28,061 nt of DNA from a virus (IMGVR_UViG_3300036956_000151); one strand, 5' to 3'; counted from the first letter of the stretch, positions 1,902 through 23,915 are shown. Notes: generated from the sequence alone by a model not told the origin. Translations and numbers: made by a program.

Positions 1902-1978
1902 GGGCCGTTAGCTCAGTTGGTTAGAGCAGGCGACTCATAATCGCTTGGTCGCTGGTTCAAGTCCAGCACGGCCCACCA
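1902..1978 (+). tRNA. tRNA with CAU anticodon; anticodon and T arms match what I recall of enterobacterial ileX (tRNA-Ile2, lysidine type) better than elongator tRNA-Met; 77 nt including encoded CCA
   Basis: Acceptor stem GGGCCGT/ACGGCCC, D-arm TAGCTCAGTTGGTTAGAGCA, anticodon loop CTCATAA, T-arm GGTTCAAGTCC, 3' CCA; sits directly after rpoD as ileX does in E. coli. Confidence 0.9.
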
Positions 1979-2028
1979 TACGTATCAAGCACTTAGGCCA
2001 GCCTCACGAGGGCTGGCCTTTTGCTTTC
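1933..2028 (+). repeat. att direct repeat copy 1 (tRNA 3' half from anticodon loop plus terminator); part of the intact tRNA
   Basis: Near-identical to 12407-12502 and 27555-27660. Confidence 0.85.
1996..2027 (+). terminator. Rho-independent terminator of the tRNA (GGCCAGCC-N7-GGCTGGCC followed by TTTTGCTTT); repeated with the att copies at 12470-12501 and 27620-27651
   Basis: 8-bp GC stem plus T-run seen directly. Confidence 0.65.
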
Positions 2029-2036
2029 TGGGCCAA

Positions 2037-2055
2037 TGTAAGCACCTTGTAAGCG
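2037..2055 (+). promoter_or_regulatory. Two TGTAAGC heptamers (2037-2043, 2049-2055) at left end of element A; candidate integrase arm-type sites
   Basis: Same heptamer occurs three times at 12257-12287 at the opposite end, just upstream of the element A integrase start. Confidence 0.4.
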
Positions 2056-2530
2056 CCAGCAGAGGATGCGGGCCTGATGTCTGATGCGTACGTAACTTGT
2101 GTGCGTACCAGACTGCGTACTCGTGCATTGCACGGCCTCACATTGCGGTGCTGGCTATCGCCTTCCAAGCCCACGTTTAAAACGGAGCCTTCGACGGCGT
2201 GCTGAATACTCCGGTTTGAAATCGGAATATTCCCAGCTCCGGACAGCCCTGCGGCGACAGCCTCAAACCTTGACATCTTTGAACATCGGGCCTGACTCGC
2301 AGTAGAGGATGTCGCCGTTCCCGATACCCTGCAAAACCTACAAATCGTCGGCTTTGTGCAAGGGGCGCGAGGCATCCAACGCCATAAGGCACATATCGAA
2401 AGCTGCCTAGCAAGGGGGTGGCGTTTCGCCCACCCCTTTGATGCTCCCCGCAGGGTCGGGAAAACTACGCTATTTCCCGCAGTTTCAAGTTCGACCGTGG
2501 GCACCCTCGCCGGCCCCACCTCGCCCATCA

Positions 2531-2564
2531 ACCAAATTGGTAGATGGAGCAACCAATTTGGTTG
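2531..2564 (+). promoter_or_regulatory. Two adjacent palindromes ACCAAATTGGT and CAACCAATTTGGTTG; operator-like
   Basis: Perfect inverted repeats about 90-120 bp upstream of the Rha-like ORF. Confidence 0.35.
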
Positions 2565-2596
2565 CCACCAGCTTTACCGACCAGCACGGCGAAGGG

Positions 2597-2618
2597 GTGT
2601 CCTCAGTTTTGAGGATAC
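2597..2618 (+). promoter_or_regulatory. Palindrome GTGTCCTCA-GTTTT-GAGGATAC; operator-like, homologous to the site at 15443-15466 in element B
   Basis: Inverted repeat seen directly; 38 bp upstream of the ATG at 2657. Confidence 0.4.
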
Positions 2619-2656
2619 GTCGCCCCCGTCGCCAGCAGATACCCCATCAGCAAACC

Positions 2657-2803
2657 ATGAGCAGCCGCGAGATTGCGGAGCTAACGGGCAAGTGTCACGG
2701 CAACGTGAAGCGGACCATCGACACCTTGTCTGCCAAGGGAGTTATCCCTTTCCCTCATGCTGAGGAAAAGGCTACTGCGGGCCGTCCGCCGCTTGGCCTC
2801 TGA
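2657..2803 (+). CDS. Short ORF (48 aa) resembling only the N-terminal DNA-binding region of Rha/antirepressor-family phage proteins; possibly a truncated remnant
   Basis: MSSREIAELTGKCHGNVKRTIDTLSAKGVI matches the Rha-type N-terminal motif (SxEIAEL-GK-H-NV-R-I); no obvious SD. Confidence 0.4.
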   Translation: MSSREIAELTGKCHGNVKRTIDTLSAKGVIPFPHAEEKATAGRPPLGL

Positions 2804-2994
2804 GGGTGGCGTTTTTAAAACGCCCCCCCATGGAGAGCCAATATGGAGGCCATTTGCGGGAATGGCTCAGTTCTGAGCTATGAAGACCAGAGCCGGAATC
2901 CCTGTTCCACTCCCCATCCCGCCCAAGCCATGAATGCCGGCTGTCGCTGCAACCGTCGTGTGTAACTCTGCCCTGTAACCGCCAGCCAGAAGCG

Positions 2995-3016
2995 AAAAAC
3001 CCGGCGCTTGGCCGGG
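2995..3016 (-). terminator. Rho-independent terminator for the minus-strand gene 3054-3371 (CCCGGC-N5-GCCGGG followed by T5 on the minus strand)
   Basis: Hairpin plus A5 on the plus strand, about 40 bp past the stop codon. Confidence 0.5.
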
Positions 3017-3053
3017 TCTGTCCGTAGTGGGTACTAAACTTCAGGCGACATCT

Positions 3054-3371
3054 CTACCCCTCGGGGGAGCCAAAGTTGCGCAAAACCACACGGGCTAGGC
3101 TGCTGGTGCTGCAAAAACGGTCCTCGATGGCTGACATGACCGAGATGTTCAAGTCCTCGATTCTTGCCGACAGCCCGCGAAGCAATAGGGACTCGTCAAA
3201 GTTCTCCGATGTAAACGTTTCGCGCAGCATTCGGCACAGCCTGTCGATTTCCCAGGTTGCTTCCAGTGCTATGTCTCGGCGAGCCATGGACATAACTATA
3301 TCGTCGCCCTCTTCGCGGAGGTCTTGGTTGGTTCCGGTTTGGGGAAGGCTATCTAGTGTCGTTGCTTGCAT
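3054..3371 (-). CDS. Hypothetical acidic protein, 105 aa (MQATTLDSLPQTGTNQDLREEGDD...)
   Basis: ATG preceded by AAGGAG at 7 nt; terminator downstream; the plus-strand ORF over the same DNA is Ser-rich antisense-like. Confidence 0.5.
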   Translation of the reverse strand: MQATTLDSLPQTGTNQDLREEGDDIVMSMARRDIALEATWEIDRLCRMLRETFTSENFDESLLLRGLSARIEDLNISVMSAIEDRFCSTSSLARVVLRNFGSPEG

Positions 3372-3580
3372 GGTGGCTGCTCCTTGTGTGCGGTGATGTT
3401 CTCCGCAACCCCTTCCTACGGGGGCGGCGGAACCGTGCGGGGCTAGGAATACCGGACACAAGGAACCGGCCAGCCTCGCGGCTGCCCCACACGGCCCGCC
3501 ATTGAACAGGCGTCGCCATGCTTACCGACGTAAAAAAACCGCTTGCGCGGCCCTGTCGGCCTTGTGATTTCCGGGTTCCT
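3372..3580 (-). promoter_or_regulatory. Conserved ~200-bp structured non-coding leader (module 1), homologous to 15029-15235 in element B; possible promoter/5'-UTR or small RNA
   Basis: Alignable by eye with element B (shared GTTCTCCGC, GAACCGTGC, CCATGCTTACCGACGTAAAAAAACCGC-type blocks); conserved stems with compensatory changes; ends in SD plus ATG. Confidence 0.4.
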
Positions 3581-3760
3581 ACGCCCGCCCCTCTGTTTCG
3601 GGGGAAACTGAATCATGGGGCAGGCCGCTCGTTTCAGTCAATATAAAAATGATAATGAAATAGATTGGCTTGCCATAAATTTCGCTTGTACCATCGGCAT
3701 ACGACCACGGGCGTCTCGCAAGATGCAGACTGGCGCTCGCTCAAGACACAAGAGGCCCAC

Positions 3761-4735
3761 ATGAAGCGATTTGTTGTCATCCTCGGAGTATTGATGCTTG
3801 GCGGCTGCGCTACCGCCTATAAGCCTGAAGGTCACGGCGGAGGTTATACCGACGCTAGGTATGGCCCAAACCTCTTTGCAGTCACCGTGCGGGCCAACGG
3901 CTATACATCTTCTGACCGTGCAACAGAGCTGGCAATGCTACGAAGCGCGGAGCTTACATTGCAGAATGGATTCACCCATTTCGTCATCGCCGAGAGGGCT
4001 CAAGAGGCAAAGACCAGCACATTCAGCATGCCGACAACCACTTACACGACCGGAAATATCAACACGCAAGGAAATGCCGCTTACTTGAACGCCCAGACAA
4101 CAACTACAGGCGGGCAAACCTTCAATATTTCGAAGCCTCGCGTTTATTACAAAATAGAGTGTTACCGCAGTCAGCCCGACAGAGCCCTCGGGCTCGCTTA
4201 CGACGCCCGTGCAGTCTGCGAATCGCTTGGCAGCAAGTACGGCGTTGATTGCCAATCTCTCATCGCCACCAATCTCAAGCCTACCCATTCCAATGCCGGC
4301 GAAGTGCGTGCGGAGCTGTCCGCCGACCTGCCAGCCGGCTGGCAACGGCAAACTCTTTCTGACGAACTAGCGCAAAGAGGGGGAAGGCTGTTTGCCACTA
4401 ACAAGACCATAGACGCTGGGGCCTTGGTTTCGATGAGCAAACGGTCTGAAATTGTCGACACAGTCGTTTACGCCAAATCATTGAGAGCAAACCAAGCGAG
4501 CCTCATCGATAAAAGCGAGTGGTCTGAACTATCTGAAATCACCATAAACGGTCGTCGAGCATGGAAATTCTGGGTCACAGGCCTCTCAAAACGCGGCATG
4601 CAGGTTCAGTACCTAGGGACCGTTATTGAAGGCGAGTCACAGATGATTTACGTGAATACCTGGACTTCAAAGAAGAACTTTGACGATAACCGCACTGCTC
4701 TGGAGTCTCTCGCTGGCAGCTTTTCAGGCCTTTAG
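3761..4735 (+). CDS. Predicted lipoprotein, 324 aa, unknown function; low-GC cargo gene
   Basis: MKRFVVILGVLMLGGCATAYK (signal peptide with LGGC lipobox); AGAGG SD; GC visibly lower (~50%) than surroundings; Thr/Asn-rich linker segment. Confidence 0.8.
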   Translation: MKRFVVILGVLMLGGCATAYKPEGHGGGYTDARYGPNLFAVTVRANGYTSSDRATELAMLRSAELTLQNGFTHFVIAERAQEAKTSTFSMPTTTYTTGNINTQGNAAYLNAQTTTTGGQTFNISKPRVYYKIECYRSQPDRALGLAYDARAVCESLGSKYGVDCQSLIATNLKPTHSNAGEVRAELSADLPAGWQRQTLSDELAQRGGRLFATNKTIDAGALVSMSKRSEIVDTVVYAKSLRANQASLIDKSEWSELSEITINGRRAWKFWVTGLSKRGMQVQYLGTVIEGESQMIYVNTWTSKKNFDDNRTALESLAGSFSGL

Positions 4736-4768
4736 GCAGCGCAAGCGACGCCCGACCCCAAAGCGGCT

Positions 4769-4796
4769 ACGCGTGAAAGTGGCGTCTTTCACGCGT
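4769..4796. repeat. Palindromic hairpin repeat ACGCGTGAAAG-N6-CTTTCACGCGT; second copy at 5429-5456
   Basis: 11-bp perfect stems; two direct copies ~660 bp apart bracketing the repeat-rich block. Confidence 0.6.
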
Positions 4797-4907
4797 AACG
4801 ACGGGGCCAAGGGGAGGCCTCGTAGTCGGCTGGGTTGGCGATGAGCGGGGGAGAAGCAGGCTTGGTTTCCAGGGTCGGTTTCCAGCAGAACAGACCTTTT
4901 TCGCCTC

Positions 4908-4977
4908 CTGAAACCTGAACATCTTTCAGCATTCGCCGTCATGCCGTGCGCTTTTCTGTGCGCGTTGCCGGCTGCAT
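4908..4977. repeat. ~65-bp direct repeat (TGAACATCTTTCAGCAT...GTGCGCTTT...TTGCCGG), second copy 5148-5217; iteron-like
   Basis: Two copies ~240 bp apart read directly. Confidence 0.55.
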
Positions 4978-5260
4978 TACATCGAGGACCGGGCCAGCCA
5001 TGCGGTCGATGGCCACCTTGTGTTGTTCTTCAGGATTCAGGATTCAGCCGGGCCGGCACAGTGCTAGCACCGGGCTTGCCCGGTACTGGGGCTGCTTCGC
5101 ACTGCGGCCTGACGTGAAGACGCCCTCCCGCCCGGTCGTTTTGCTTCGTGAAAAGTGAACATCTTTCAGCATCGCATCGGGATGCTGTGCGCTTTCGCGT
5201 GCGGATTGCCGGAATCGGGGCAGGGCCAGTGCCGTCCATCTTCTGGACGCCATCGGTAGC

Positions 5261-5308
5261 GCCGATTTCAGCGCCGATTGACCGGCCGATTGACCGGCCG
5301 ATTGGCTG
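5261..5308. repeat. 12-bp tandem repeat GCCGATTGACCG, about four units, outer units degenerate
   Basis: GCCGATTTCAGC GCCGATTGACCG GCCGATTGACCG GCCGATTGGCTG. Confidence 0.6.
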
Positions 5309-5428
5309 CGCACCGAGCTGCGTACCACTGCCCTGCGTACCCGACTGCCGACGAAGGCCACGCCGCCAGCAGCGGCCACCAGTTCCAGAAAAGCGGCCTA
5401 CTCGCCAGCGTAGAGCTAGTAGCGGCCA

Positions 5429-5456
5429 CGCGTAAAAGTCGCGCCTTTCACGCGTG
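5429..5456. repeat. Second copy of the palindromic hairpin repeat (ACGCGTAAAAG-N6-CTTTCACGCGT)
   Basis: See 4769-4796. Confidence 0.6.
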
Positions 5457-5471
5457 ACGACGCGTGCGAGG

Positions 5472-5499
5472 GGAAGGAAGGAAGGAAGGAAGGAAGGAA
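5472..5499. repeat. (GGAA)7 tetranucleotide microsatellite
   Basis: Seven perfect GGAA units. Confidence 0.9.
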
Positions 5500-5771
5500 C
5501 TCTCTACGAGCGCGTTTGATGCGCCTGGCTACCTGCGCTTCCCTCAGACACGCAGTGCGTTCTTCGGTCTCCAGACGGGCGAGTGCACAGGCCATCCGGG
5601 CCAGGGTCAGAACTTACTGTTTCAGGCTGGCGGATTCTCGTTCCAGGGCGGCGAGTCGTTCAGCCTCCCCAAAACTCCCCAAAACCCCCCATTTATGGGT
5701 GCCGTCCTCCCCAAAACTCCCCACACCACCTTTAAGAGGTGGGGGGAAATGGGGACCATGTGGGGAATGGG

Positions 5772-7745
5772 TTACTTGAGCCACAGCCAGCCCTCCCGAA
5801 GGACGATGCAGCCACGGTTCACAAGTCCGGTAATGGCAAGCTGCGCCCTGTAACGTTTCTGGTCCGGGTCACATGCAAGGCGGGCGCGGGTCTTGTCGAT
5901 AGCCTCTTCCAGTTCAACGCAGGGCCGGCCAGGAGGTCCGCCAGCTTCCCCGAAGTGCCGCGACTCTTTCAGCAGGTCGCGCAGTGCGTCGAGGATGATT
6001 CGCTGATTCCCGCCGGTCGGCAGCTTCACCCGCCCCACGGCATCGGCGGCGCGCTCTTCGGGAACGACGCAGCAGCTTGTGATTTCGTCGCCGTCCTCGT
6101 CGGCCCCGATTTCCACCACTTCCAGCCGAAACGGTTTTCCCAGGTCGTCATTGCCATCCTTGCTCTTCGCGGCCGTCCATTCCCGGCGGTCGTCGGTGCG
6201 GCTCACCTCGATGGCGGCATCAAGCGCAGCGTGAAGGCTGGAATGCCCCCGCAGGCCCTTGGACGCATCCTTGCCGGTGTGATGCACCAGCAGCACCAGC
6301 CCGCCAAGCTCCGCCTGTAGCGCCTTCGTCGCGGCGATGATTTCGCCCATTGCGGCGGAGTCGTTCTCGTCGGCACCCGGCGCGGCGCGGTTCAGCGTGT
6401 CGAGGGCCAACACGCCACCCGAGTAACCGGCAGCGCGGGCGGCGCTCACAAGGTCGGCGCGGTCGGCAGCTTTGCGGATGTCGAGCGGTTGCAGCAGGAA
6501 GCGGAATGCGCCGGCAAGTGGGCCGTGTTTCTCTTGGTGCGCCTGGACGCGTTGCGAGATGCCGGCCTCACCCTCAAGGGCAACATACAGCACTGGGGCG
6601 GCCTTCACGCGGCACCCGAACCACGGCCGGCCAGCGGCGACAGCGGCGAGCATGTCGAGCGCCAGGAAGGATTTGCCGGACCCGCTTGGGCCATACAACG
6701 CGGCAATCCCTTCCTCCGGGAGCACACCACGCACCCGCCAGCGGACAGGGGGCAGCGCGGCCAGTTCAGACGGTGCCAGCAGCCGGAAGCGTTGCGAGTG
6801 CTTCTTCGGATTGGCCAGCAGTGCGGCCAGGGCGTCGAGGCCGTCCCGCTGGTGCATGTCGTTGGCGTCAAAGTTGGCGGGCGAGCCTTCCGGCATTTCC
6901 ACCCATGCGGCGGCGGTGTCCTTGGCGATGCGGGCGCAATGCGACTCCTTGCCGGCATCGGCCACCAACACCCGGCGGGCCAGCGGGTAGCGGTCGGCCA
7001 GCGCCTTGGATGCGGCTTCCATCCGGCCGGCACCGAAGCAGACCGCGGCCGGCGCGTTCGCGGCCTGGTGGCAGCTCCACGCCTGCCCGACGCCCTCGCA
7101 CAGGTAGAGCGTGACGCCTGCGCCCTGGTGCGGGATGCGCCCCACCACGAACAGGCCGTCCATCGGCAGGCCGGGGGCGTTCAGTTTCTTGCCATCGGCC
7201 GGCGGGATGAATTGCGCGCTCTTCAGGGTGCCGTCAATCGCGTAGCACGGCACCACGAGATAGCCGGCCACCGCCTCGCGGGCGATGGTCAGCGGGCCGC
7301 CATAGACGCGCAGGCCGGCGGGTAGGCCATGCTTGCGGGCAATGTAGCCGTGTTCCGCCGTCGCTGGTGCGCAGGATGCCCACAGGGCGGCCACGTCGAG
7401 CGGCGGAGCCTTGGACGGGGCTTCGTGCATCCGGCGCTCGGTCGTGCGTTGTGGGCGGTTCTGGTAAGTCTGGCGCGGTGCGTCGTCGCTCCATCCAGCG
7501 GCGCGGGCCAGTGCGAAGAGCGTACCGGCCTGGATGCCGCCATCCTCGCGGATGCTCCGCCAGACGGCGCGTGCGTCGGCCTCGTTGCGATAGTTGCCGG
7601 CTCCGGCGCTCCAGTCATGGAAGTCCTCGAAGTCGAGGCCGGCAGCCTTTGCAGCCATGCCAGCCCGGACCCATTCGGCGCGTTCGGCACCGGGGTCGAG
7701 GGCGTGCAAGGCAAAGCGGGCGCGGTCAAACTCGCGGGCATCCAT
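5772..7745 (-). CDS. Primase-helicase-type replication protein, 657 aa (PriCT-like N-terminus, Toprim-like centre, RecA-type ATPase C-terminus); ORF-track N-terminal 71 aa rejected
   Basis: MDAREFDRARFALHALDP...GLDFEDFHDWSAG; CEGVGQAW and VLVADAGKE; Walker A YGPSGSGKSFLALD and VLLVHHTGKD; ATG overlaps upstream stop (ATGA). Confidence 0.85.
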   Translation of the reverse strand: MDAREFDRARFALHALDPGAERAEWVRAGMAAKAAGLDFEDFHDWSAGAGNYRNEADARAVWRSIREDGGIQAGTLFALARAAGWSDDAPRQTYQNRPQRTTERRMHEAPSKAPPLDVAALWASCAPATAEHGYIARKHGLPAGLRVYGGPLTIAREAVAGYLVVPCYAIDGTLKSAQFIPPADGKKLNAPGLPMDGLFVVGRIPHQGAGVTLYLCEGVGQAWSCHQAANAPAAVCFGAGRMEAASKALADRYPLARRVLVADAGKESHCARIAKDTAAAWVEMPEGSPANFDANDMHQRDGLDALAALLANPKKHSQRFRLLAPSELAALPPVRWRVRGVLPEEGIAALYGPSGSGKSFLALDMLAAVAAGRPWFGCRVKAAPVLYVALEGEAGISQRVQAHQEKHGPLAGAFRFLLQPLDIRKAADRADLVSAARAAGYSGGVLALDTLNRAAPGADENDSAAMGEIIAATKALQAELGGLVLLVHHTGKDASKGLRGHSSLHAALDAAIEVSRTDDRREWTAAKSKDGNDDLGKPFRLEVVEIGADEDGDEITSCCVVPEERAADAVGRVKLPTGGNQRIILDALRDLLKESRHFGEAGGPPGRPCVELEEAIDKTRARLACDPDQKRYRAQLAITGLVNRGCIVLREGWLWLK

Positions 7746-8194
7746 CACATCACCCCCAGCACGCGCACGAAGGCCGCGACAACGGCGGCGGTCACGGATG
7801 CAGCGGCGAAGACAACGAGCGCGTCGAGGCTGATGGAACCGCGTTGCTGTCGTGCGTTCAGGGCGGCAGCGGTTGCCGGGTGCTGGCGGTCGAGCGCGTA
7901 CTCGGTGATTGTGCTGCGGCAATGGGGGCGGCGGATGTCGCGCTTGCAAAACGCCCACCCGCCATACTCCAGCGACTTAACTGACGCGGCCAGCCGCCAC
8001 CCGTCGCGGTAGTCGGCCTGGTTCTGCGGGCCGGTCAGCAGCGCCTGAAGGGCTTCGTAAGCCCGGGTGTTGTCGTTCGGCCAGCTTGCAGCTTCAACAG
8101 GCGGCAGCGTCTCGGGAAAGAGGTCTTGGGCGTTATAATGGCGAGGCTTGTCCAGGGCGCTCGACTTCTTTTTGGGGGTCGGGCGCTTTTTCAT
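7745..8194 (-). CDS. Hypothetical protein, 149 aa, basic N-terminus and hydrophobic C-terminal helix; coupled to primase gene
   Basis: ATGA overlaps at both ends. Confidence 0.6.
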   Translation of the reverse strand: MKKRPTPKKKSSALDKPRHYNAQDLFPETLPPVEAASWPNDNTRAYEALQALLTGPQNQADYRDGWRLAASVKSLEYGGWAFCKRDIRRPHCRSTITEYALDRQHPATAAALNARQQRGSISLDALVVFAAASVTAAVVAAFVRVLGVM

Positions 8195-8520
8195 GCCGCA
8201 CCAGCCTTTCGGGCCTTCGCTTCGACGAGCGCCATTTCATTGGCAGCGAACTCCTGACCTGCGCTGCCGGCGGCCTCAATGACTTCGACCGGCAGGCGGT
8301 ACTGCGCGAAGGCGCACGACTCGCCGAAGCGGTTGGGACGTTGGATAGTCTCCTTCGCGACGCCCCAGCCCCATTTGGTCAGGAGGAAAACGACGGCGGC
8401 AGTCCGGTAGATGCCCAGCGTCCTCCAGCTTGCAATGGGGCCAATGGCATTGCCAGCCAGAAACGCAGCGAGCAGGCGGGCGCTCTGGGTGCCGTGCTTG
8501 GGGTAGGTGCCGGCCATCAT
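8191..8520 (-). CDS. Hypothetical protein, 109 aa
   Basis: Start overlaps upstream stop (TAATG); stop overlaps downstream start (ATGA). Confidence 0.6.
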   Translation of the reverse strand: MMAGTYPKHGTQSARLLAAFLAGNAIGPIASWRTLGIYRTAAVVFLLTKWGWGVAKETIQRPNRFGESCAFAQYRLPVEVIEAAGSAGQEFAANEMALVEAKARKAGAA

Positions 8521-8750
8521 TACGCCACCTCGCCAGAGGTAAGGGCCTCAACGGCCGCGGCGTCCCACAGCAAGAAGCGGTTGCGGCACTTGACCGGGCG
8601 CAGGCCGAAGTAATGCCCGTCACGGCACAGGGCGGCGCGCAAGGTCTGCGGGCGCACCTTCAGGACGGCGGCGGCCTCAATGGTGGAGTAGTTGCGCAGG
8701 ATGGACGCGATGTCCGTGCGCTTGGTGGTGGGTGTGTTTTGGTGTTGCAT
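8520..8750 (-). CDS. Small HTH DNA-binding protein, 76 aa, AlpA/excisionase-like; first gene of the replication operon
   Basis: STIEAAAVLKVRPQTLRAALCRDGHYFGLRPVKCRNRFLLWDAAAVEAL; AGGAGA SD; same motif pattern as the element B gene at 23916-24098. Confidence 0.7.
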   Translation of the reverse strand: MQHQNTPTTKRTDIASILRNYSTIEAAAVLKVRPQTLRAALCRDGHYFGLRPVKCRNRFLLWDAAAVEALTSGEVA

Positions 8751-8843
8751 TCGCTGGTTCTCCTGCTCGGAAAACCACCGTTGAGAGTCGCCGGATGCAA
8801 CTCAATCAACGCTGGCGAACGCAATGTGTTGCGCCGAAGTCTA

Positions 8844-8859
8844 TTAACAGCCGGCTGTT
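8844..8859. promoter_or_regulatory. Perfect 16-bp palindrome TAACAGCCGGCTGTTA in the promoter region of the element A replication operon
   Basis: Lies between the stop at 8863 and the HTH gene start at 8750. Confidence 0.35.
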
Positions 8860-8862
8860 ATG

Positions 8863-9456
8863 TTACCCGCCATTTCCAAGATGCTGATTTTTAAGGGTCT
8901 TTAGGCTGTTTAGAAATTTGCGCTCTTCGCTACCCCCCTCGGTTCTAAGTCCGTGCTCGTCAGTGAATACAACATACCCCGCGTCGCGCTGCACGACTCC
9001 ACGGCTCTCCAGTTTGTCCAGCATATCCGATGCAGTCAGGAGTCTGTTCTTGTCCCATATGGCCTTTGCCTCTAGTCGCCAGCGGATAGTAGCGGGCCGT
9101 CCTCCTTTGCGTACGACACGCTTCTGCGACGCGGACCTAGCCTGCTGTGCTCTTGCTGCTGCGGCGTAATGCTGCATCATCGGAGACAAGGGACCGACAG
9201 CAAGAATGGCAGACCTTGCAGCCGCAACGGACGCGGCGTGCGCAGCATCAACCATTGGCTGCATCCACTGACGCGTTTTTTCAGGCCACGTCTCCCTTAG
9301 AAGTCCAAGAGGCGGCTCCTGCAAAGGTAGGGTCAGCGAGCTTCTCAGCACCGACTCGAACACGGCGAGCTGGATTTCCTCGGCCCCGCGCCTGAAGTCA
9401 GCCGCGAATGATGCGGACTGACCTCCCATCCCCTGTTTTTTCAAATGCTTTGTCAT
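8863..9456 (-). CDS. Hypothetical protein, 197 aa; contains a GGRPA motif shared with the syntenic 252-aa protein of element B
   Basis: AAGGAG SD 6 nt upstream; directly preceded by conserved hairpin module 2. Confidence 0.6.
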   Translation of the reverse strand: MTKHLKKQGMGGQSASFAADFRRGAEEIQLAVFESVLRSSLTLPLQEPPLGLLRETWPEKTRQWMQPMVDAAHAASVAAARSAILAVGPLSPMMQHYAAAARAQQARSASQKRVVRKGGRPATIRWRLEAKAIWDKNRLLTASDMLDKLESRGVVQRDAGYVVFTDEHGLRTEGGSEERKFLNSLKTLKNQHLGNGG

Positions 9457-9477
9457 CGCGCTCCTTCAAGCGCCTTC

Positions 9478-9552
9478 AAAAGAGGCACCGCGCCAGGCGG
9501 GTGAAGGTTCCCGCTTTTCGGTTGGCCGACCTAGGCGCGGTGGTGGTACTCG
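9478..9552. terminator. Conserved nested-hairpin element (module 2): outer stem CACCGCGCC/GGCGCGGTG enclosing inner hairpin GCGGG-N8-CCCGC plus T4; terminator-like in both orientations; homologous copy at 25028-25104
   Basis: Near-identical flanks in both elements; inner stem differs by compensatory changes (GCGGG/CCCGC versus CGGGG/CCCCG). Confidence 0.45.
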
Positions 9553-9553
9553 G

Positions 9554-9934
9554 TCAGGCGGCAATCGCCTCATTCAAGGGACACGGCTGAATCAGCACGT
9601 CAGCCGGGAGGCCGAGGCCAGAAGACAGGCGGCGAATCATCGTCACCGACAGCGGGCGCGTCCGGTTCATGATGTCGGCCACCCTCCCCCGCGGGCCGAT
9701 GTAAGGCTCCAAGTCCTTGCGCGTCAATCCGCGGGACTCCATGACGTACTCAAGGAAGGCCACCGGGTCCGGGGCTTTAATCAGGAAGTGCGCCTTTTCG
9801 TAGGCTTCCACCAGCATGGCGAGCACCTCCAGGCGGTCGGCCTCGGGGCTTCCATCAGGGGCATCCCACAGGCGTTCGATATCGGCCAGGGCTTCGTTGT
9901 GCTCGGCTTCGGTTCGGATGGGCTTCAGTTCCAT
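9554..9934 (-). CDS. higA: HigA-family antitoxin (HTH), 126 aa
   Basis: Immediately downstream of the HigB-type toxin gene; AGGAG SD; C-terminal HTH-like segment LTRKDLEPYIGPRGRVADIMNRTRPLSVTMIRRL. Confidence 0.8.
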   Translation of the reverse strand: MELKPIRTEAEHNEALADIERLWDAPDGSPEADRLEVLAMLVEAYEKAHFLIKAPDPVAFLEYVMESRGLTRKDLEPYIGPRGRVADIMNRTRPLSVTMIRRLSSGLGLPADVLIQPCPLNEAIAA

Positions 9935-9942
9935 GGCGGCTC

Positions 9943-10236
9943 CTAGATGGTTTCAGCGTCTATCCGGTCGTACTCGGCATGAGTGCCCACGAAACGGATG
10001 AACATCATGGTGGAGGTGTAACGCACAGCCGCCACCAACCGGTAGTCATTGCCCTTGATGTTGAACACCACGCGGTTGTTCGCCAGAAAGCTGGCGTTCC
10101 GGTGCGCGGCCTTGATGTCGGCCGGGGTTTGCCAGGTGGCCCGGCTTGCCTCGGCGTACCAACCACGCAAAGGGGTTTCGGCTTGCGGATGCTTCTCCCA
10201 AAACTCGCGCAGTGCTCGCAGTGCAATGATGTGCAT
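9943..10236 (-). CDS. higB: HigB-family type II toxin (mRNA interferase), 97 aa
   Basis: MHIIALRALREFWEKHP...NNRVVFNIKGNDYRLVAAVRY...IRFVGTHAEYDRIDAETI; toxin-first order. Confidence 0.85.
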   Translation of the reverse strand: MHIIALRALREFWEKHPQAETPLRGWYAEASRATWQTPADIKAAHRNASFLANNRVVFNIKGNDYRLVAAVRYTSTMMFIRFVGTHAEYDRIDAETI

Positions 10237-10319
10237 GACTCAATCTAGCATGTTACCGTTTTGGTAGCAAACACTCAGGCTTTCACCACCCGCAGCCCGG
10301 CCGCCTGCTCTTCGCCCGG

Positions 10320-10604
10320 TCAGGCGGCGATGCGTGCCACGGGTGCCCGGTCCTTGGCGCGCTCGCCGGCTGTCCAGAGGTCGCGCTGCGTTTGCAGGCG
10401 CAGCCAGTAGCCGGGCGAGGTGCCTAGCGCCTCGTGCAGGCGCAGGTCCATATCGGCGGTGACGGCGGCATGCCCGTGCAGGATGCGGGACAACATCACC
10501 CGGCTGATGCCCACATGGGCGGCAAAGGCGGTCACGCTCATATCGAGGTCTTCCAGCCAGCCGGCCAGGATTTCGCCAGGGGTTGAAGGGTCGTGCATGT
10601 CCAT
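10320..10604 (-). CDS. HigA-like antitoxin (XRE-type HTH), 94 aa
   Basis: PGEILAGWLEDLDMSVTAFAAHVGISRVMLSRILHG...ITADMDLRLHEALGTSPGYWLRLQTQRDL; follows the killer-protein toxin gene. Confidence 0.8.
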   Translation of the reverse strand: MDMHDPSTPGEILAGWLEDLDMSVTAFAAHVGISRVMLSRILHGHAAVTADMDLRLHEALGTSPGYWLRLQTQRDLWTAGERAKDRAPVARIAA

Positions 10605-10615
10605 GATGTCGGGCC

Positions 10616-10894
10616 TCAGTGGTAATCCAGATAGTCCAGCAGTTCCACGTTTCCGCCATCGAAGCGGAACACAAGCCGCCAGTTGGCTTGCACCGTCATG
10701 GCGAGGAAGCCGGCGCGGTCGCCGGACAGGCCATGCAGGCGCCAGGACGGGCGGGCGAGGTCTTCCGGGCCGGCGGCGGCGTTCAGGGCGGTCAGCATTT
10801 CCCGTAGGCGCTTGGCGTGAATCGGCTGAATGCCGGCCTGCTTGCCGGTCAGGAAGAAGGCTTCAAGCCCCTTGTGTCGGAACGATAGAATCAT
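10616..10894 (-). CDS. RelE/ParE-superfamily toxin of the HigB killer-protein type, 92 aa
   Basis: MILSFRHKGLEAFFLTGKQAGIQPIHAKRLREMLTALNAA...LLDYLDYH. Confidence 0.85.
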   Translation of the reverse strand: MILSFRHKGLEAFFLTGKQAGIQPIHAKRLREMLTALNAAAGPEDLARPSWRLHGLSGDRAGFLAMTVQANWRLVFRFDGGNVELLDYLDYH

Positions 10895-10898
10895 AGTC

Positions 10899-10917
10899 TG
10901 TAAATCATAGCTTTACA
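10899..10917. promoter_or_regulatory. Inverted repeat TGTAAA-N7-TTTACA upstream of the toxin gene; likely TA operator/promoter
   Basis: Between toxin start (10894) and integrase stop (10926). Confidence 0.4.
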
Positions 10918-10925
10918 ATGTCCGC

Positions 10926-12242
10926 TCAGGTCACAACCCGCAACCCAGGCGCCTGCCCCTCGTCCGGCTGCTCGATGCCGGCCTGCTCCAGAATCCAGCC
11001 CTCTATCTTGATGTGCCACAGGGTCAGCAGGTCGAGCGGCCGGCGGCGATAGTGCTTCTCGGCCAAGGCGCTGGGCTTGTGCCCCTGAATCTGCGCCACC
11101 ACGCCGACGGGCACCTCGCACCACTCCGCCAGGGTGCCGAAGGAGCGGCGCAGGTCATGCAGCGAGAATGGCGGCAGGCCGGCGGCTTCCATCGCTTTGC
11201 GCAGGGGTTTGAGGACTTCCACGATACGGCCATCCGCGGCCGCAGGGCTTGAGAACACCCACTCATTCCGGCGCGGCAGAGAGGCCAGCAGCGAGGCGAC
11301 GAAGGGCGTCAGCGGGATGATGCGGCCCTCTTCCTCCACCTTGTCGGCGATGTGCAGGGACTTCCATTGAAAATCCACGTCAGCCCATTTCAGGCCGGCC
11401 AGTTCCTCGCGCCTCGCGCCGGTCAGGAGCAAGGTTTGCAGGTAGGCGGCGTGCACCGGGTTCCCCAGCTTGCGGACATGCTCGAACCACAGCGGCAATT
11501 GTTCGCGGCGCAGGCTGTCGCCTTTGGTCTTCACCGCCTGCACTTGGTCCCGCACTTCGCTGGTGCGGCAGGCATCCGCACGAACGAGGCCGGCATACTC
11601 CGGGCGCTCGGCACACCAGCCAAGGAAGGCGCGCACGAGGCGGAATATCTTTGCGGCCTGCGTCGCCCCGCGGGCGTTGTTGTCCTGCATCCATGCCGTG
11701 ATGCGTGCCGGGGTCAGGTCCAATAGGCGCACATGCAGCAGCGGATGTACCATGCCGGGCAAAGTGTATTCCCCCTGCCCAGCCTTGCGCCCTCGCGTGA
11801 TGCGCTCGCCGCCGGGCTTTATGGCCTGTGCATGGTCGCGCTGTGAGGACTCGCCCCACTTGTGCGAGCGGGCCAGAACATAGGCGGCCCATGCCTCGCC
11901 AACGGTCACTTCCTGCCGTGCGGACTCTTCCCGCTTGGCCTCGATGGCGGCGCGCTTGTCGGCCTTCTCTTGGCGCGGGTCGATGCCTTGGTCAATCAGG
12001 GTTTGCAGGCGGCGGGCTTCGGCGCGGGCTGCGTCAATGCCCCACGCGCGCACGTCGCCAATCGTGATGCGAAGAGCCTTGCCGTTCAGGCGGCTTTGGA
12101 AGATGAACCCGCGCGCCTCGCTGCCGGGTGTGGCACGCACTGCGAGGCCGGGCGCTTCCGTGTCCCACAGGAAGGCTTGAGCGGTGCCGGTCGGGCATTC
12201 AAATTCGCGGATGCGGCCGGCGGTCAGCTTGTTGCGTGCCAT
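10926..12242 (-). CDS. int: Tyrosine recombinase, P4-type integrase (element A); ATG at 12242 preferred over the ORF-track start at 12248
   Basis: ~438 aa; catalytic-domain blocks LTGARREELAGL, HDLRRSFGT, HKPSALAEKHYRRR; GGAGAA SD; adjacent to att copy 2. Confidence 0.9.
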   Translation of the reverse strand: MARNKLTAGRIREFECPTGTAQAFLWDTEAPGLAVRATPGSEARGFIFQSRLNGKALRITIGDVRAWGIDAARAEARRLQTLIDQGIDPRQEKADKRAAIEAKREESARQEVTVGEAWAAYVLARSHKWGESSQRDHAQAIKPGGERITRGRKAGQGEYTLPGMVHPLLHVRLLDLTPARITAWMQDNNARGATQAAKIFRLVRAFLGWCAERPEYAGLVRADACRTSEVRDQVQAVKTKGDSLRREQLPLWFEHVRKLGNPVHAAYLQTLLLTGARREELAGLKWADVDFQWKSLHIADKVEEEGRIIPLTPFVASLLASLPRRNEWVFSSPAAADGRIVEVLKPLRKAMEAAGLPPFSLHDLRRSFGTLAEWCEVPVGVVAQIQGHKPSALAEKHYRRRPLDLLTLWHIKIEGWILEQAGIEQPDEGQAPGLRVVT

Positions 12243-12256
12243 GTTCAAGTTCTCCG

Positions 12257-12287
12257 TGTAAGCGGCTCATGTAAGCAGCTTGTAAGC
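12257..12287. promoter_or_regulatory. Three TGTAAGC heptamers (12257, 12270, 12281) upstream of the element A integrase; candidate arm-type sites
   Basis: Direct repeats read from sequence; same heptamer at the left end (2037-2055). Confidence 0.4.
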
Positions 12288-12406
12288 GGATTCTAGAACA
12301 CGCTTCAATTTCCATCAACGTCAAAAACGGAATGAATGCTTTATTTTCAATGCCTTGCTGTTTTTATGAAACGCTATTCAATGTCAAAAAACCCCGTAAC
12401 CATTCA

Positions 12407-12502
12407 ACTCATAATCGCTTGGTCGCTGGTTCAAGTCCAGCACGGCCCACCATACGTATCAAGCACTTAGGCCAGCCTCACGAGGGCTGGCCTTTTGCTT
12501 TC
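12407..12502 (+). repeat. att direct repeat copy 2 (junction between element A and element B); tRNA 3' half only, no 5' half
   Basis: ACTCATAATCGCTTGGTCGCTGGTTCAAGTCCAGCACGGCCCACCA plus terminator; preceded by unrelated AT-rich sequence. Confidence 0.85.
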
Positions 12503-12510
12503 CGGCGCCG

Positions 12511-12529
12511 TGTAGCCACCATGTAGCCA
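12511..12529. promoter_or_regulatory. Two TGTAGCCA octamers at left end of element B; candidate arm-type sites
   Basis: Same motif at 27389-27425 (three copies, one inverted) upstream of the element B integrase. Confidence 0.4.
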
Positions 12530-12582
12530 GATTCGAGAAGTCCGCACAACCACATACAAAAGGCCCCATGCTGGAAGCCGGT

Positions 12583-12691
12583 GGAGGGAGCTATCGGCCT
12601 CCCCTCCTCCGCCGTGAGTGCGTGATGGCTCCGTTTTGAGCCATCGTCAGCAACGGCCGAAAGTAAAGGGTGGGCAGATTGTGCCCACCCT
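12583..12691. other. Three consecutive GC-rich hairpins (12583-12607, 12624-12646, 12665-12691) between att copy 2 and the Rha-like fragment
   Basis: Inverted repeats GGAGGGAG/CTCCCCTCC, GATGGCTC/GAGCCATC, AAGGGTGGGCA/TGCCCACCCTT. Confidence 0.3.
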
Positions 12692-12698
12692 TGGCGGG

Positions 12699-12830
12699 TC
12701 AGCAGCTCATGGGCTTCTCCTCAATTTGAGGAGAAGCAATCACGCCGCGCTCAAGCAAGGTTTCGATGGTGCGCTTCACGTTGTCGTGACGCTTCGGCCT
12801 GGTGCCGGCATGGGCGACTGATGCGAACAT
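12699..12830 (-). pseudogene. Decayed Rha-like N-terminal fragment, 43 codons; lacks the usual N-terminal helix
   Basis: Translation ...RPKRHDNVKRTIETLLERGVIASPQIEEK matches the element A ORF at 2657-2803; below the 60-aa ORF-track cutoff. Confidence 0.35.
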
Positions 12831-12847
12831 TGCTCGGGTCAGAACGA

Positions 12848-12872
12848 AGGGTGTCGCTATTCCCGACACCCT
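12848..12872. promoter_or_regulatory. Palindrome AGGGTGTCG-N7-CGACACCCT just upstream of the Rha-like fragment
   Basis: Shares GGTGTC/GACACC half-sites with the palindromes at 2597-2618 and 15443-15466. Confidence 0.35.
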
Positions 12873-13071
12873 TTAAAACCTGGTGAACGTGGGGCCTCGT
12901 TCGCAGAACGACACGCCCGGCCGCCGAGGGCCTGCGTACTGTGCAGTCCCTCTCCGGGTCAGAACTTGGGCCTCGTTCGCAGAAACGGCACCTGATGCGA
13001 ATGAACTACTTCATAGCCCGCAAACCCCGCGTGCCCTAGGATGAAGGCTCCTTTTCTTTCCTGATAGATCT

Positions 13072-13260
13072 ATGGGTCCGATCTCCAAACCGTCCAGAAT
13101 CAGCCAATGGCGCGCCACCACTGCCGCCGGCGAAACCGAAGTCTTCAACCTCAAAATAATCGCCGACGACTGGGCGGGCGTCGGTGGCACGGTCGAAGCC
13201 GTGAATGCTGCCGACCAGAAGGCATTGCAAGGGGGTGGCAAAACACCACCCCATGAATGA
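13072..13260 (+). CDS. Possible small protein, 62 aa, unknown
   Basis: GC-rich third codon positions and non-repetitive composition; no clear SD. Confidence 0.25.
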   Translation: MGPISKPSRISQWRATTAAGETEVFNLKIIADDWAGVGGTVEAVNAADQKALQGGGKTPPHE

Positions 13261-13298
13261 GAACCCCGGCGCGTGACGGGGGCTGGTGGTGAGTCGCG

Positions 13299-13589
13299 TT
13301 ACTGGGTCCGTGCGTGGCCGCTGGGTGGCGGCAGAATGTCCGACAGGGGCAAACCCTGCGCCCAGGCGTGCAACTCGGTAAGAAGCCAGCCTATCCGGTT
13401 GCTCGACGTCTTGCGGGGCGCTGGGAACGTTCCCTTCAGCACCTGTGCGGCGATGTTCGACGGGCTGAGTCCCACAATCGTGCAGGTGGTGTCCCGGTCC
13501 ACGATGACAGGATCGATGTGAATCACCCTGGTGACCCGCAGCGTTCCGCCGCTGGGCGTGCACGCGGGGATCTTCTTCGGCCGTCCCAT
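13299..13589 (-). CDS. alpA: AlpA-family phage transcriptional regulator, 96 aa
   Basis: GLSPSNIAAQVLKGTFPAPRKTSSNRIGWLLTELHAWAQ fits the AlpA pattern; start coupled to upstream stop. Confidence 0.75.
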   Translation of the reverse strand: MGRPKKIPACTPSGGTLRVTRVIHIDPVIVDRDTTCTIVGLSPSNIAAQVLKGTFPAPRKTSSNRIGWLLTELHAWAQGLPLSDILPPPSGHARTQ

Positions 13590-13590
13590 T

Positions 13591-14058
13591 TCAGGTGCTC
13601 CCGGGTGCGTGGGCGGTCGCCTGGCGGCCACCAACGGCACGCAGTTCGTCGGAGAGGCTTAAGGCCTCCCGGGCGAGCGCCTGAAAGTCTGCCTGTGCTG
13701 GGGCCGACCCCGCAAGAAACTGATTGATCCTCCGCATGAGCGAATCTTGGCGCTGCTGGAGGTCCGCCAGGCCGGCAAGGATCACGTCCGCAAGGGGTGG
13801 GAGTTCTGCGCGATTCTCCCAGTCGTCAGCACGGCCGAGGAGGTAATCAGCTGAAACACCATAGACCCGCGCCGCATCGGCAAGCAGCTGGGGCGTGATT
13901 CCCTTTGGGTAGTTCGGATGCTCGGCGCGGGTCAAACGGGATGCACTCTTGATGCCAAGCCGCCGCGCGGCCTCGTCCGTGCCCAGGCATGCGATCTCGC
14001 GGGCGGATTTCAAGCGCTGGCCGACGATGCACTGCGCTACGGGTGGTCTCTTGCTCAT
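13591..14058 (-). CDS. XRE/Cro-CI-type HTH regulator, 155 aa
   Basis: HTH-like segment and motif ARVYGVSADYLLGRADD; paralogous to 20619-21212; AAGGA SD. Confidence 0.7.
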   Translation of the reverse strand: MSKRPPVAQCIVGQRLKSAREIACLGTDEAARRLGIKSASRLTRAEHPNYPKGITPQLLADAARVYGVSADYLLGRADDWENRAELPPLADVILAGLADLQQRQDSLMRRINQFLAGSAPAQADFQALAREALSLSDELRAVGGRQATAHAPGST

Positions 14059-14093
14059 GGTGGTGTCCTTCTCAATTCCAGCGTTTCAGGGGG

Positions 14094-14119
14094 CTGTGCG
14101 CCCGGTTGAAGGCGCACAG
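14094..14119. promoter_or_regulatory. Inverted repeat CTGTGCGCC-N8-GGCGCACAG between the 173-aa gene and the XRE regulator; hairpin or operator
   Basis: 9-bp perfect stems. Confidence 0.35.
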
Positions 14120-14135
14120 ATCCATCCCGCGGGTG

Positions 14136-14657
14136 TCAGGCGGCGTCGCGGCGATAGTTGCTGCCCACGTCTTCCGCTGTGCCGTTGACGAGATCCTGCA
14201 CGGTGCTGGCCATGTCGTGGATCGTCAGCAGGGTGCTATCGAGGTGCGGGCGCAGCGACTCAAGCTGGCCAGAGCCCGCGGCGGCCTTGGTGACCGCGGC
14301 AACGCCCGCGATCTTTCTTGCAGCCTCTTGAACGTAGAGATCCATCAGGTTAGCCGCGGTCTGCAGCTCACGAACCTTGGTCGGGGCGTTGCGGGAGGGG
14401 CAGAAGGCGTAGTCCGTGTCCTGGCAACCTACCACCGTGGCCTGTGCCTTGATATCTGCAGCGGAATCGCGAGCAAGGCCGATGATCGCGTCCATCGCGG
14501 TGCCAGTGCCGGCCGCATCGTCAGACTTAAGGGCGCCTTGTGCCGTGCGCACGAGGCCCATGATTGCGTCGGTGGCCTGTTGCGAATGGCGGTCAATCAG
14601 CTCGACGGTCTTCATCAGGGTGGCGAGGTTGGTGTTCTTGATGGTGGTGGTGGTCAT
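14136..14657 (-). CDS. Hypothetical protein, 173 aa, mostly helical
   Basis: GGAG SD; start 2 nt after upstream stop. Confidence 0.6.
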   Translation of the reverse strand: MTTTTIKNTNLATLMKTVELIDRHSQQATDAIMGLVRTAQGALKSDDAAGTGTAMDAIIGLARDSAADIKAQATVVGCQDTDYAFCPSRNAPTKVRELQTAANLMDLYVQEAARKIAGVAAVTKAAAGSGQLESLRPHLDSTLLTIHDMASTVQDLVNGTAEDVGSNYRRDAA

Positions 14658-14659
14658 GG

Positions 14660-15028
14660 TCAGGCGCTCCAGGCAAAGGAAAGACGATAGGCTGCTACGG
14701 GACCGGCAAGCCGGCGGATGGTGCGGTACATCGAGAGGGACGTGGCGAGGCGAGCGCGGCCGGGACGGCGCGCGGTGCGATCAGCGGCGGCGAGGGCCTG
14801 CTGTGCGGCCTCGAGCAGAGGGGCCGGCAGGAAGCTGTCAGCGCTGGTCGGACGCACGGGCGGGTAATCCATCGTCTCGGTGACGATGGCGCGCAGGGCG
14901 GACACGGGTGACGGTGCAGCAGGACGGGCACGGCCGATGCGGCGATGCGGGCCGCGAACAAGGGCGGGGCTGTGTTTGGGGCGTGAGGTGCTGCAGAGTG
15001 CGGGCGCACTGGGGGCGTGGGTAGCCAT
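14660..15028 (-). CDS. Possible protein, 122 aa, Pro/Ala/Arg-rich; start at the position homologous to the element A gene 3054-3371
   Basis: AAGGAA SD; low-complexity composition makes coding status uncertain. Confidence 0.35.
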   Translation of the reverse strand: MATHAPSAPALCSTSRPKHSPALVRGPHRRIGRARPAAPSPVSALRAIVTETMDYPPVRPTSADSFLPAPLLEAAQQALAAADRTARRPGRARLATSLSMYRTIRRLAGPVAAYRLSFAWSA

Positions 15029-15235
15029 GGTGATGTTCCTTATTTGCGGTCTTGTTCTCCGCTACCCAGCCGCCAAGCTGGGTGAGCAGAACCGTGCAGG
15101 TTGGCGGACCGGAATAAGGACCGGCAGGGTTTCCCCTCCCGCACGGCCCCGCCCAATGAGGCGATACCATGCTACGGACGTAAAAAAACCGCGCAGTGCG
15201 GCGGTTGTCCGCCTTATTTACCCGGGCCGCCAAGC
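15029..15235 (-). promoter_or_regulatory. Conserved structured leader (module 1), element B copy
   Basis: Homologous to 3372-3580; includes hairpin CCGC-N5-GCGG followed by A7 (terminator-like on the minus strand). Confidence 0.4.
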
Positions 15236-15442
15236 CCGTATCACCGTTGTTTGCAGCGACGAAAATATGATGCGCCTGGGCGCCGCTGGTGGTCAAGCAC
15301 TTATTTTGCATGTGTGGCGCCGGAGGGGAGGTGGACACATGAATCATGGGCGCCCGAGGACGGACACGGTAGGTGTCATTTCGGCCGGCGACACCCGCCT
15401 AAAATGGGTGGCCGCGGTAAGTCGAGCACGTCAGGCCGCCGA

Positions 15443-15466
15443 GGTGTCCTCAGTTTTGAGGACACC
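15443..15466. promoter_or_regulatory. Perfect palindrome GGTGTCCTC-AGTTTT-GAGGACACC; operator-like
   Basis: Homologous to the site upstream of the element A Rha-like ORF, but no Rha-like ORF follows here. Confidence 0.4.
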
Positions 15467-15553
15467 GTCACCAATGTGCAAATCTGCACAATATCCAGAC
15501 CCACGCGGCTGCCCTGGATGAAGCCGTCTGCGTCGCTTCTGAGTTTCATCGGA

Positions 15554-16459: not shown

Positions 16460-16464
16460 AGGCT

Positions 16465-16632: not shown

Positions 16633-16633
16633 G

Positions 16634-23914: not shown

Positions 23915-23915
23915 G

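Follow-up and report, generated by a model that had tools for sequence, protein, structure and literature searches.

Tandem integrative elements at a tRNA-Met gene with a common front end and different replication modules

When two sister elements occupy the same attachment site, do they also replicate in the same way? This question is raised by a viral sequence of 28,061 nucleotides (nt) (IMGVR_UViG_3300036956_000151; the whole stretch is hereafter called the window), in which three direct repeats of 119 nt, made of the 3' part of a tRNA-Met gene and its terminator, delimit two tandem elements, A and B (Table 1). A preliminary description of the window had proposed that these elements share their integrases and their layout, use different replication modules, and thus reveal module exchange between relatives. 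The common attachment (att) repeats and the integrases, which are 78% identical, bear out the shared part of this proposal. By gene content and homology, the elements have a common front end and a differing replicase core. We hold it quite probable that they are related integrative elements, placed in tandem at the tRNA-Met gene, in which this front end is followed by different self-contained replicon cassettes.

This front end comprises the integrase, toxin-antitoxin genes of the HigBA type, the int-alpA RNA motif and two small genes, one for a helix-turn-helix (HTH) protein and one for a winged-helix-like protein. Outside the integrases and the att repeats, the DNA similarity between A and B consists of about 100 nt (9456-9557 vs 25004-25108) and two stretches of 23-39 nt. 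The int-alpA motif, whose region is 83-94% identical between the two copies, accounts for the largest of these. In A, it lies in a conserved non-coding region, with the integrase and toxin-antitoxin genes upstream of it and, downstream, a block of leftward genes of which the replication operon is the last part. The HigB/HigA-like pairs stand between the integrase and the motif, two in A and one in B, and the motif is separated from the small HTH gene by a gene of 197 amino acids (aa) in A and 251 aa in B, which have no mutual similarity. The HTH proteins themselves are homologous (76 aa in A and 60 aa in B; 45% identity, E 6e-12 with BLASTP). The match of the former to Pfam HTH_17 (E 8.4e-4, 20 bits) is below the cutoff of 27. 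The 149-aa winged-helix-like protein of A, for which Pfam gave no match, is likewise a homolog of the 99-aa protein of B (41% identity over 73 aa, E 7e-15). Because of this homology in two leader genes, the modules are not wholly different, and the contrast drawn in the preliminary description holds for the replicase cores.

In element A, the module (5772-8750, minus strand) has four genes, encoding the small HTH, a winged-helix protein, a small protein and a primase-helicase. The three stop/start overlaps, read directly from the DNA (TAATG at 8520, ATGA at 8191-8194, TGATG at 7745), indicate that all four are translationally coupled, as had been noted before. The winged-helix protein (109 aa, HTH_39) has relatives in three other loci (L016, L043 and L054) and no counterpart in element B. 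The primase-helicase has 657 aa when started at the ATG at 7745, and a database protein that is 99% identical to it has the same length; a start at the GTG at 7958 was rejected. It begins with a PriCT_2 domain (aa ~12-80, Pfam 8.6e-15), followed by a Toprim_3-like primase region (aa ~155-300), an AAA_25 helicase domain (aa ~324-494, Pfam 1.6e-38, 132.7 bits vs a cutoff of 27) and a C-terminal domain (aa ~570-657). The helicase motifs are conserved (Walker A GPSGSGKS, and LDTL, HHTGK and RGHSSL for Walker B, H3 and H4), and the domain matches RepA of plasmid RSF1010 (PDB 1g8y, 3.7e-9). In RSF1010, the hexameric helicase RepA, the primase RepB' and the initiator RepC are separate proteins.

The central region of this protein is assigned as a Toprim primase by a transitive argument. 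PF13362 (Toprim_3) is present between PriCT_2 and AAA_25 in many orthologs, which are 57-69% identical to the protein of A. The acidic residues E217, D263, E267, D293 and D296 are conserved in an alignment of 20 sequences (alignment A3), the first three being invariant or nearly so. Residues 160-263 align with residues 159-260 of P4 alpha (BLASTP, 30% identity, E 3e-6), with 'LYLCEGVGQA' opposite 'LWIAEGYATA', and the protein also matches PHROG primase families.

Is the module of A then P4-alpha-like, as the preliminary description put it? The homologous Toprim core and the operon logic justify the term. The left operon of P4 (vis/ORF88 ... orf151, cnr, alpha, then crr) similarly combines a small DNA-binding protein, small open reading frames (ORFs), a fused Toprim primase-helicase and a repeat-bearing cis region on the 3' side, and RNAs of the C4/CI class are found elsewhere in each element. 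The term does not fit the helicase or the N-terminus. P4 alpha consists of Zn_Ribbon_Prim (PF08273), Toprim_3, D5_N, the superfamily 3 (SF3) helicase DUF5906 and Pox_D5, whereas the protein of A joins PriCT_2 and the Toprim-like region to a RepA-like AAA_25 helicase of superfamily 4 (SF4), with no SF3 match. Pfam gave no zinc-ribbon match in it, and PriCT_2 takes the N-terminus. Unlike in P4, the integrase of A stands upstream of the operon and not beyond crr, and its similarity to P4 Int is only marginal. The small HTH was considered as a relative of Vis and rejected, because BLASTP found no similarity between them. The protein of A is also like T7 gp4 in its logic of a Toprim primase joined to an SF4 helicase (with a match to phrog_239), but in gp4 the primase is of the Toprim_2/zinc-ribbon kind and the helicase of the DnaB_C type, where A has Toprim_3/PriCT_2 and AAA_25.

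Just 3' of the primase-helicase gene of A, 42-108 nt past its stop codon, lie two clusters of iterons (5664-5688 and 5706-5730) that start 42 nt apart. Six relatives that carry the same type of gene (L004, L033, L046, L011, L019 and L042) also have two clusters 42-43 nt apart in this place, with different sequences, so that the layout is found in seven of seven A-type loci. A constant layout with changing sequences suggests an origin whose specificity co-evolves with the protein. We propose that cassette A encodes a one-protein replicase, a single chain that joins the primase, homologous to the P4 alpha core, to an SF4 helicase of RSF1010-RepA type and to a C-terminal domain. This last domain would bind the iteron pair directly 3' of its own gene, and the protein would load itself, unwind the DNA and prime synthesis by the host DNA polymerase III.

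Element B is organised differently after the leader genes. Its operon (21566-24098, minus strand) has five genes, all intact and coupled, encoding the HTH protein, the 99-aa protein, an initiator, a small partner protein and a helicase. The preliminary description had rightly recognised an organiser-like protein, which corresponds to the initiator, and a separate RecA-fold helicase. However, the stretch given to them (21566-23615) holds three genes, the operon extends beyond it to 24098, and the genes of 126 and 60 aa had been missed. The initiator matches phrog_16167 'replication initiation protein' (4.4e-35) and five more PHROGs of that name at E ≤ 1e-10 (phrog_2149, 12556, 1408, 270 and 9474). 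Its residues 153-229 match phrog_9327 'primosomal protein'. It has no match among Pfam families and no meaningful one among PDB sequences. Its N-terminus is 40% identical to that of the initiator of prophage L084, whose C-terminus weakly matches DnaT. The partner gene overlaps the helicase gene by ATGA at the helicase start (22492). The helicase matches Pfam DnaB_C (1.5e-9, 38 bits vs a cutoff of 27), AAA_25 (4.3e-8), phrog_5482 (3.7e-64) and phrog_239 'primase/helicase' (3e-50), the latter only over positions 326-601 of an 801-position profile. Among PDB sequences, it matches Twinkle (1.9e-12) and the T7 helicase 1e0j (7.6e-3).

In the prophages L083 and L084, the order is CI/Cro, initiator, small partner, stand-alone SF4 helicase and NinB/RusA, with no primase nearby; the module thus sits between cro and ninB. 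By its content, cassette B is a lambdoid-prophage 'initiator-helicase' module. It resembles those of P22 (gene 18/gene 12) and lambda (O) in that iterons within the initiator gene are followed by a phage helicase, with no primase. For the lambda and P22 modules, primer synthesis by the host DnaG is established. Unlike in these modules, the helicase of B is a stand-alone SF4 protein of gp4/Twinkle type, of ~308 aa and without the DnaB N-terminal domain, an uncharacterised partner of ~120 aa stands between initiator and helicase, and the initiator belongs to no Pfam family. The repeats of B lie in the interdomain region of the initiator gene and consist of about four units of 21-22 nt (about seven of 11 nt) of (C/G)ACGCG type, followed on the coding strand by a purine-rich tract (GGAAGG-rich) and TATACA. 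Mid-gene iterons occur in five of five initiator genes, those of B, L084, L083, L081 (Pseudomonas phage P7869) and L003. They resemble the lambda ori inside gene O, and those of B are its candidate origin. In cassette B, the initiator would bind these iterons in the same fashion and, together with the partner, deliver the stand-alone helicase; priming would be left to the host DnaG or to a helper phage.

How far apart are the two replicases? Both helicase domains pass the threshold of Pfam AAA_25, which places them in the SF4/RecA-fold group, and they have matches to PHROGs 239, 19 and 6357 in common. Yet the replicases are not matched to each other by BLASTP, and profile-profile alignment of the helicases with hhalign gives E 1.3e-3 and a probability of 18%, with an alignment that reaches only from Walker B to H4. 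The nearest solved relatives are RSF1010 RepA for A and Twinkle/T7 gp4 for B. The initiator and partner of B have no counterpart in A, and the Toprim/PriCT_2 region of A has none in B. On these comparisons, the replicase cores are non-orthologous. Homology of the modules, which the preliminary description had named as a refutation, is present in part, in the leader genes and in the general class of the helicases.

We searched with both integrases for relatives and obtained 80 loci, mostly of Rhodocyclales, with a best match in Zoogloea (78%). A small HTH follows the integrase in about 45 of these 80. The replicase was typed for the 58 integrases with enough flanking DNA, and the slot after the small HTH holds at least eight types: the A-type PriCT_2-Toprim-AAA_25 protein (10 loci), full-length DnaB (6), an SF2 helicase with a separate Zn_Ribbon_Prim-DUF7146-Toprim_3 primase (5), the B-type stand-alone SF4 helicase (4), an IstB/DnaC-like loader (3), and Prim-Pol-PriCT_2-VapE, Toprim_3-DUF3987 and a 976-aa PriCT_2-Toprim_3 protein (1 each). 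Genes of the 149-aa type also precede other replicases, for example in L053. On a neighbour-joining (NJ) tree of the 58 integrases, the replicase types require 27 Fitch changes, for a minimum of 8 and for 30.8 ± 1.4 when labels are shuffled. Integrase lineage and replicase type are thus almost uncoupled. This near-random spread indicates that module exchange is real and pervasive, and the exchange between relatives that had been proposed is well supported. A paper on satellites states that their primase-replicase components are analogs and not homologs, and that paraphyletic trees suggest gene flow (PMC10085698); the uncoupling that we observe agrees with both.

One of the types in this slot deserves separate mention. 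In L005 (11687-14144), and also in L017, L053 and L060, the gene of an SF2 helicase (ResIII/Helicase_C) precedes that of a distinct Zn_Ribbon_Prim-DUF7146-Toprim_3 primase. In its domains, this primase is what P4 alpha has as its N-terminal half, here encoded by a stand-alone gene.

Could the two modules nevertheless be divergent versions of one ancestral module, inherited vertically? The homologous leader genes would fit, as would the AAA_25 and PHROG matches common to the helicases. But integrases that are 78% identical would then accompany replicases that BLASTP cannot relate and that hhalign barely does, with different nearest solved relatives, an initiator and a partner present on one side only, and different origin layouts. 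The module of B has close relatives in prophages, and the replicase type varies almost at random across the integrase tree. This reading is already contradicted by the available data, and we regard it as extremely improbable.

If cassettes were exchanged, did B receive one without a primase? No primase family was matched by any likely gene or large ORF of element B in Pfam and/or PHROGs, with NCBIfam added for the operon genes. The other candidates, namely the 251-aa protein (24246-25001), a 77-aa protein and the large non-coding-looking ORFs of 13036-15985, gave no match at all. As far as these tools and the structure models see, the claim that B has no recognisable primase is supported, and a reliance on host or helper primase, as suggested earlier, is consistent with it.

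The 126-aa partner deserves the closest look, because it occupies the position that Toprim_2 has in the phage proteins closest to the helicase. These are fused Toprim_2 and DnaB_C proteins of 609-624 aa from Pseudomonas and Vibrio phages, of which the C-terminal halves match the helicase of B and the Toprim_2 domain (aa ~200-290) has no counterpart in it. The partner might thus be a highly diverged or minimal Toprim primase that became separate from the rest of a gp4-like primase-helicase, of which it was the N-terminal half. Its distribution would fit: by hidden Markov model (HMM) co-occurrence in the loci examined, it stands directly upstream of the stand-alone helicase in five of seven such arrangements, and it is absent from two phages with the fused form. 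However, its comparison with a fused phage primase-helicase gives an hhalign E of only 0.51. D57 is the sole nearly invariant acidic residue among 67 family members, so the metal-binding set of Toprim (E and DxD) is missing. At 126 aa, the protein is about half a primase catalytic domain and has no zinc ribbon. The family is conserved, but has no Pfam, PHROG or NCBIfam match, and two structure models of the partner (one of them from AlphaFold2, with a predicted local distance difference test score of 89.5) gave no significant fold match, to a primase or otherwise. That B encodes its own primase in this gene seems to us highly improbable.

A second alternative sees the module of B as the decaying remnant of a truncated primase-helicase, having lost autonomous replication. 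It draws on the same observation, that among phages the helicase has its nearest homologs in the C-terminal halves of fused proteins. Yet stand-alone helicases of this type form a large conserved family of more than 2700 proteins, the full-length ones among the 120 best listed are all of ~291-314 aa, and they are present in apparently complete lambdoid prophages. In the B helicase, both Walker motifs as well as H3 and H4 are intact, as are the five overlap-coupled genes of its operon, and the partner and helicase pair is 77-80% identical in the island L003. We therefore give little credence to decay.

These data fit better with the partner being, most probably, an accessory of the helicase. 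When 1.8 billion representatives were searched with its profile, the single-stretch matches were all stand-alone proteins of 90-170 aa; a few long proteins were matched in several short stretches and look spurious. In prophages L084 and L083, the SF4 helicase gene is directly preceded by a small ORF that matches the partner in hhalign (98.6% and 95.9%). In L003 and L013, the partner directly precedes the helicase with no match to the initiator of B, and L003 carries an HTH_36-type initiator instead. In the loci compared, the partner travels together with the helicase. Its origin as a Toprim relic is possible, with no positive support, and it could be a catalytically dead relic that docks the host DnaG. 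We also put forward, as a speculation of low probability, that the family, in prophages and satellites, is a dedicated loader or adaptor for primase-less gp4/Twinkle-type helicases, and that residence in tandem selects for replicon cassettes that do not cross-react. Selection in tandem sisters for cassettes whose protein and cognate origin do not cross-react would explain why the replicase slot is hypervariable although the integrase, int-alpA motif and HTH in front of it are conserved.

The preferred reading remains that of two tandem elements in which a common front end precedes different replicon cassettes. Each cassette would consist of the replication protein or proteins and a cis-acting candidate origin, and, because protein and cognate origin lie together, the unit could be exchanged whole. 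Several points weigh against this reading. The replication of both elements and the origin role of the repeats are computational predictions. What argues for the origins is their position and conserved layout, not motif statistics: the count of TTTTGGGGAG over the whole window is not significant, nor is that of CACGCGT (11 copies vs 6.1 ± 3 expected). The central region of the primase-helicase of A has no direct Pfam match to Toprim, even at E ≤ 1. As many as 25 of the 58 typed loci are 'other/unclassified', which blurs the tree test, and the tree is a simple NJ one. Finally, the satellite status of the elements is read from gene content, namely a few morphogenesis-like PHROG matches in B and C4-like RNAs.

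Table 1. Positions in the window of the main features of elements A and B.
Feature	Element	Position	Strand	Remarks
tRNA-Met gene		1902-1978		
att repeat, copy 1		1933-2051	+	3' part of tRNA-Met and terminator
att repeat, copy 2		12407-12525		direct repeat of copy 1, 119 nt
att repeat, copy 3		27557-27675		direct repeat of copy 1, 119 nt
Element A	A	~1933-12525		
Candidate origin	A	5664-5730	.	~10-nt unit in tandem, in two clusters; TTTTGGGGAG on minus strand
Primase-helicase, 657 aa	A	5772-7745	-	PriCT_2, Toprim_3-like primase, RepA/AAA_25 SF4 helicase, C-terminal domain
Gene 3, 149-aa small winged-helix-like protein	A	7745-8194	-	homolog of 99-aa protein of B
Gene 2, 109-aa winged helix	A	8191-8520	-	Pfam HTH_39, E 1.2e-4, above cutoff
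Gene 1, 76-aa small HTH	A	8520-8750	-	HTH_17/AlpA-excisionase class, sub-threshold
int-alpA RNA motif	A	9473-9541	-	Rfam RF02996, 71.9 bits, cutoff 35.8
Toxin-antitoxin pairs	A	9554-10236, 10320-10894		adjoin integrase
Integrase	A	10926-12248	-	78% identical to integrase of B
Element B	B	~12407-27675		
Stand-alone SF4 helicase, 308 aa	B	21566-22492	-	T7 gp4/Twinkle-type, without primase domain
Partner protein, 126 aa	B	22489-22869	-	GTG start overlaps stop of initiator
Initiator, 248 aa	B	22869-23615	-	N-terminal 'MARIRTIKPDFFTSE' domain, primosomal/DnaT-like C-terminal region
Candidate origin	B	23218-23293	.	repeats inside initiator gene, interdomain region
Gene 2, 99-aa protein	B	23615-23914	-	GTG start 1 nt past stop of HTH gene
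Gene 1, 60-aa HTH	B	23916-24098	-	homolog of gene 1 of A
int-alpA RNA motif	B	25023-25092	-	Rfam RF02996, 63 bits
Toxin-antitoxin pair	B	25382-25983		adjoins integrase
Integrase	B	26041-27369	-	78% identical to integrase of A

Beyond the candidate origin of A extends a repeat-rich non-coding stretch of ~1 kb (4740-5560), which resembles the crr repeats 3' of alpha in P4. Within it, a 73-nt unit recurs after 240 nt (4899-4971, then 5139-5212), and there are also a microsatellite of (CCTT)6 near 5470-5500, tandem units of GCCGATTG (5261-5304) and hairpins of the form ACGCGTGAAAG...CTTTCACGCGT (4768-4797 and ~5427-5466). CACGCGT clusters in two places, with 6 of its 11 copies in the non-coding region of A (4769-5466) and 3 in the intragenic iterons of B (23264-23293). 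We considered this motif as an operator or origin signal common to both elements and rejected it, the count being at chance level. That it is a site for the common small HTH or winged-helix proteins is speculative.

Both elements are probably phage satellites, judged from their gene content. They have the order of integrase, putative regulator and primase-replicase and the size (10-15 kb) of the phage-inducible chromosomal islands (PICI) and P4-like satellites as defined by SatelliteFinder. The primase-replicase profiles of such satellites include several that are not homologous, and genes flow between the families (PMC10085698). Element B also resembles these satellites in having PmgG-like head-morphogenesis and tail-tube-like PHROG matches. 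Its phage-morphogenesis-like genes (15554-16459, 17919-18644, 18677-19351 and 19535-20332) include matches to tail-tube-like families (phrog_24337/1842), phrog_4333, KilA-N in a gene of the other strand, and phrog_1114 (PmgG-like head morphogenesis), and suggest a satellite that remodels the virions of its helper. A Phage_AlpA-like match in B (13299-13640) is below the cutoff. In scans of the window proteins with Pfam, PHROG and NCBIfam, no morphogenesis or helper-hijacking gene comparable to those of B was recognised in A, and the families of Psu, Sid and Delta were not found. Element A differs from PICI and P4-like satellites in having no recognised small terminase or capsid-redirecting gene, and both differ in their hosts, which are Rhodocyclales (Zoogloea-like) to judge from the nearest relatives.

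Each element also has a match to the C4 antisense RNA family (Rfam RF01695, cutoff 45), at 3420-3506 (minus strand, 67.5 bits) in A and 15078-15160 (minus strand, 48.1 bits) in B. To this family belong the c4 immunity RNAs of P1/P7, and its presence in both islands suggests RNA-based immunity or antirepressor control. Short hairpin- or terminator-like motifs common to the distal parts of both elements (2585-2618/15432-15465 and 3523-3542/15173-15192) lie near these C4-like RNAs.

Mosaic replication modules are already established in phages and their satellites, and the swapping between A and B is a clear but ordinary case of this textbook kind of mosaicism that does not overturn current understanding. 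Its value is that of a clean natural example of replicon-cassette swapping, in which sister elements at one att site have non-orthologous replicases. It should be of use for annotating islands of Rhodocyclales, where the proteins in question are now labelled 'AAA family ATPase' or 'twinkle protein'. Of the by-products, two are the most useful, namely the small protein that accompanies stand-alone SF4 helicases and the origin layouts, which are conserved. The iteron arrangement marks the candidate origin of the PriCT_2-Toprim-AAA_25 family. For the satellites as a group, the consequence is that typing by the integrase does not predict the replication module.

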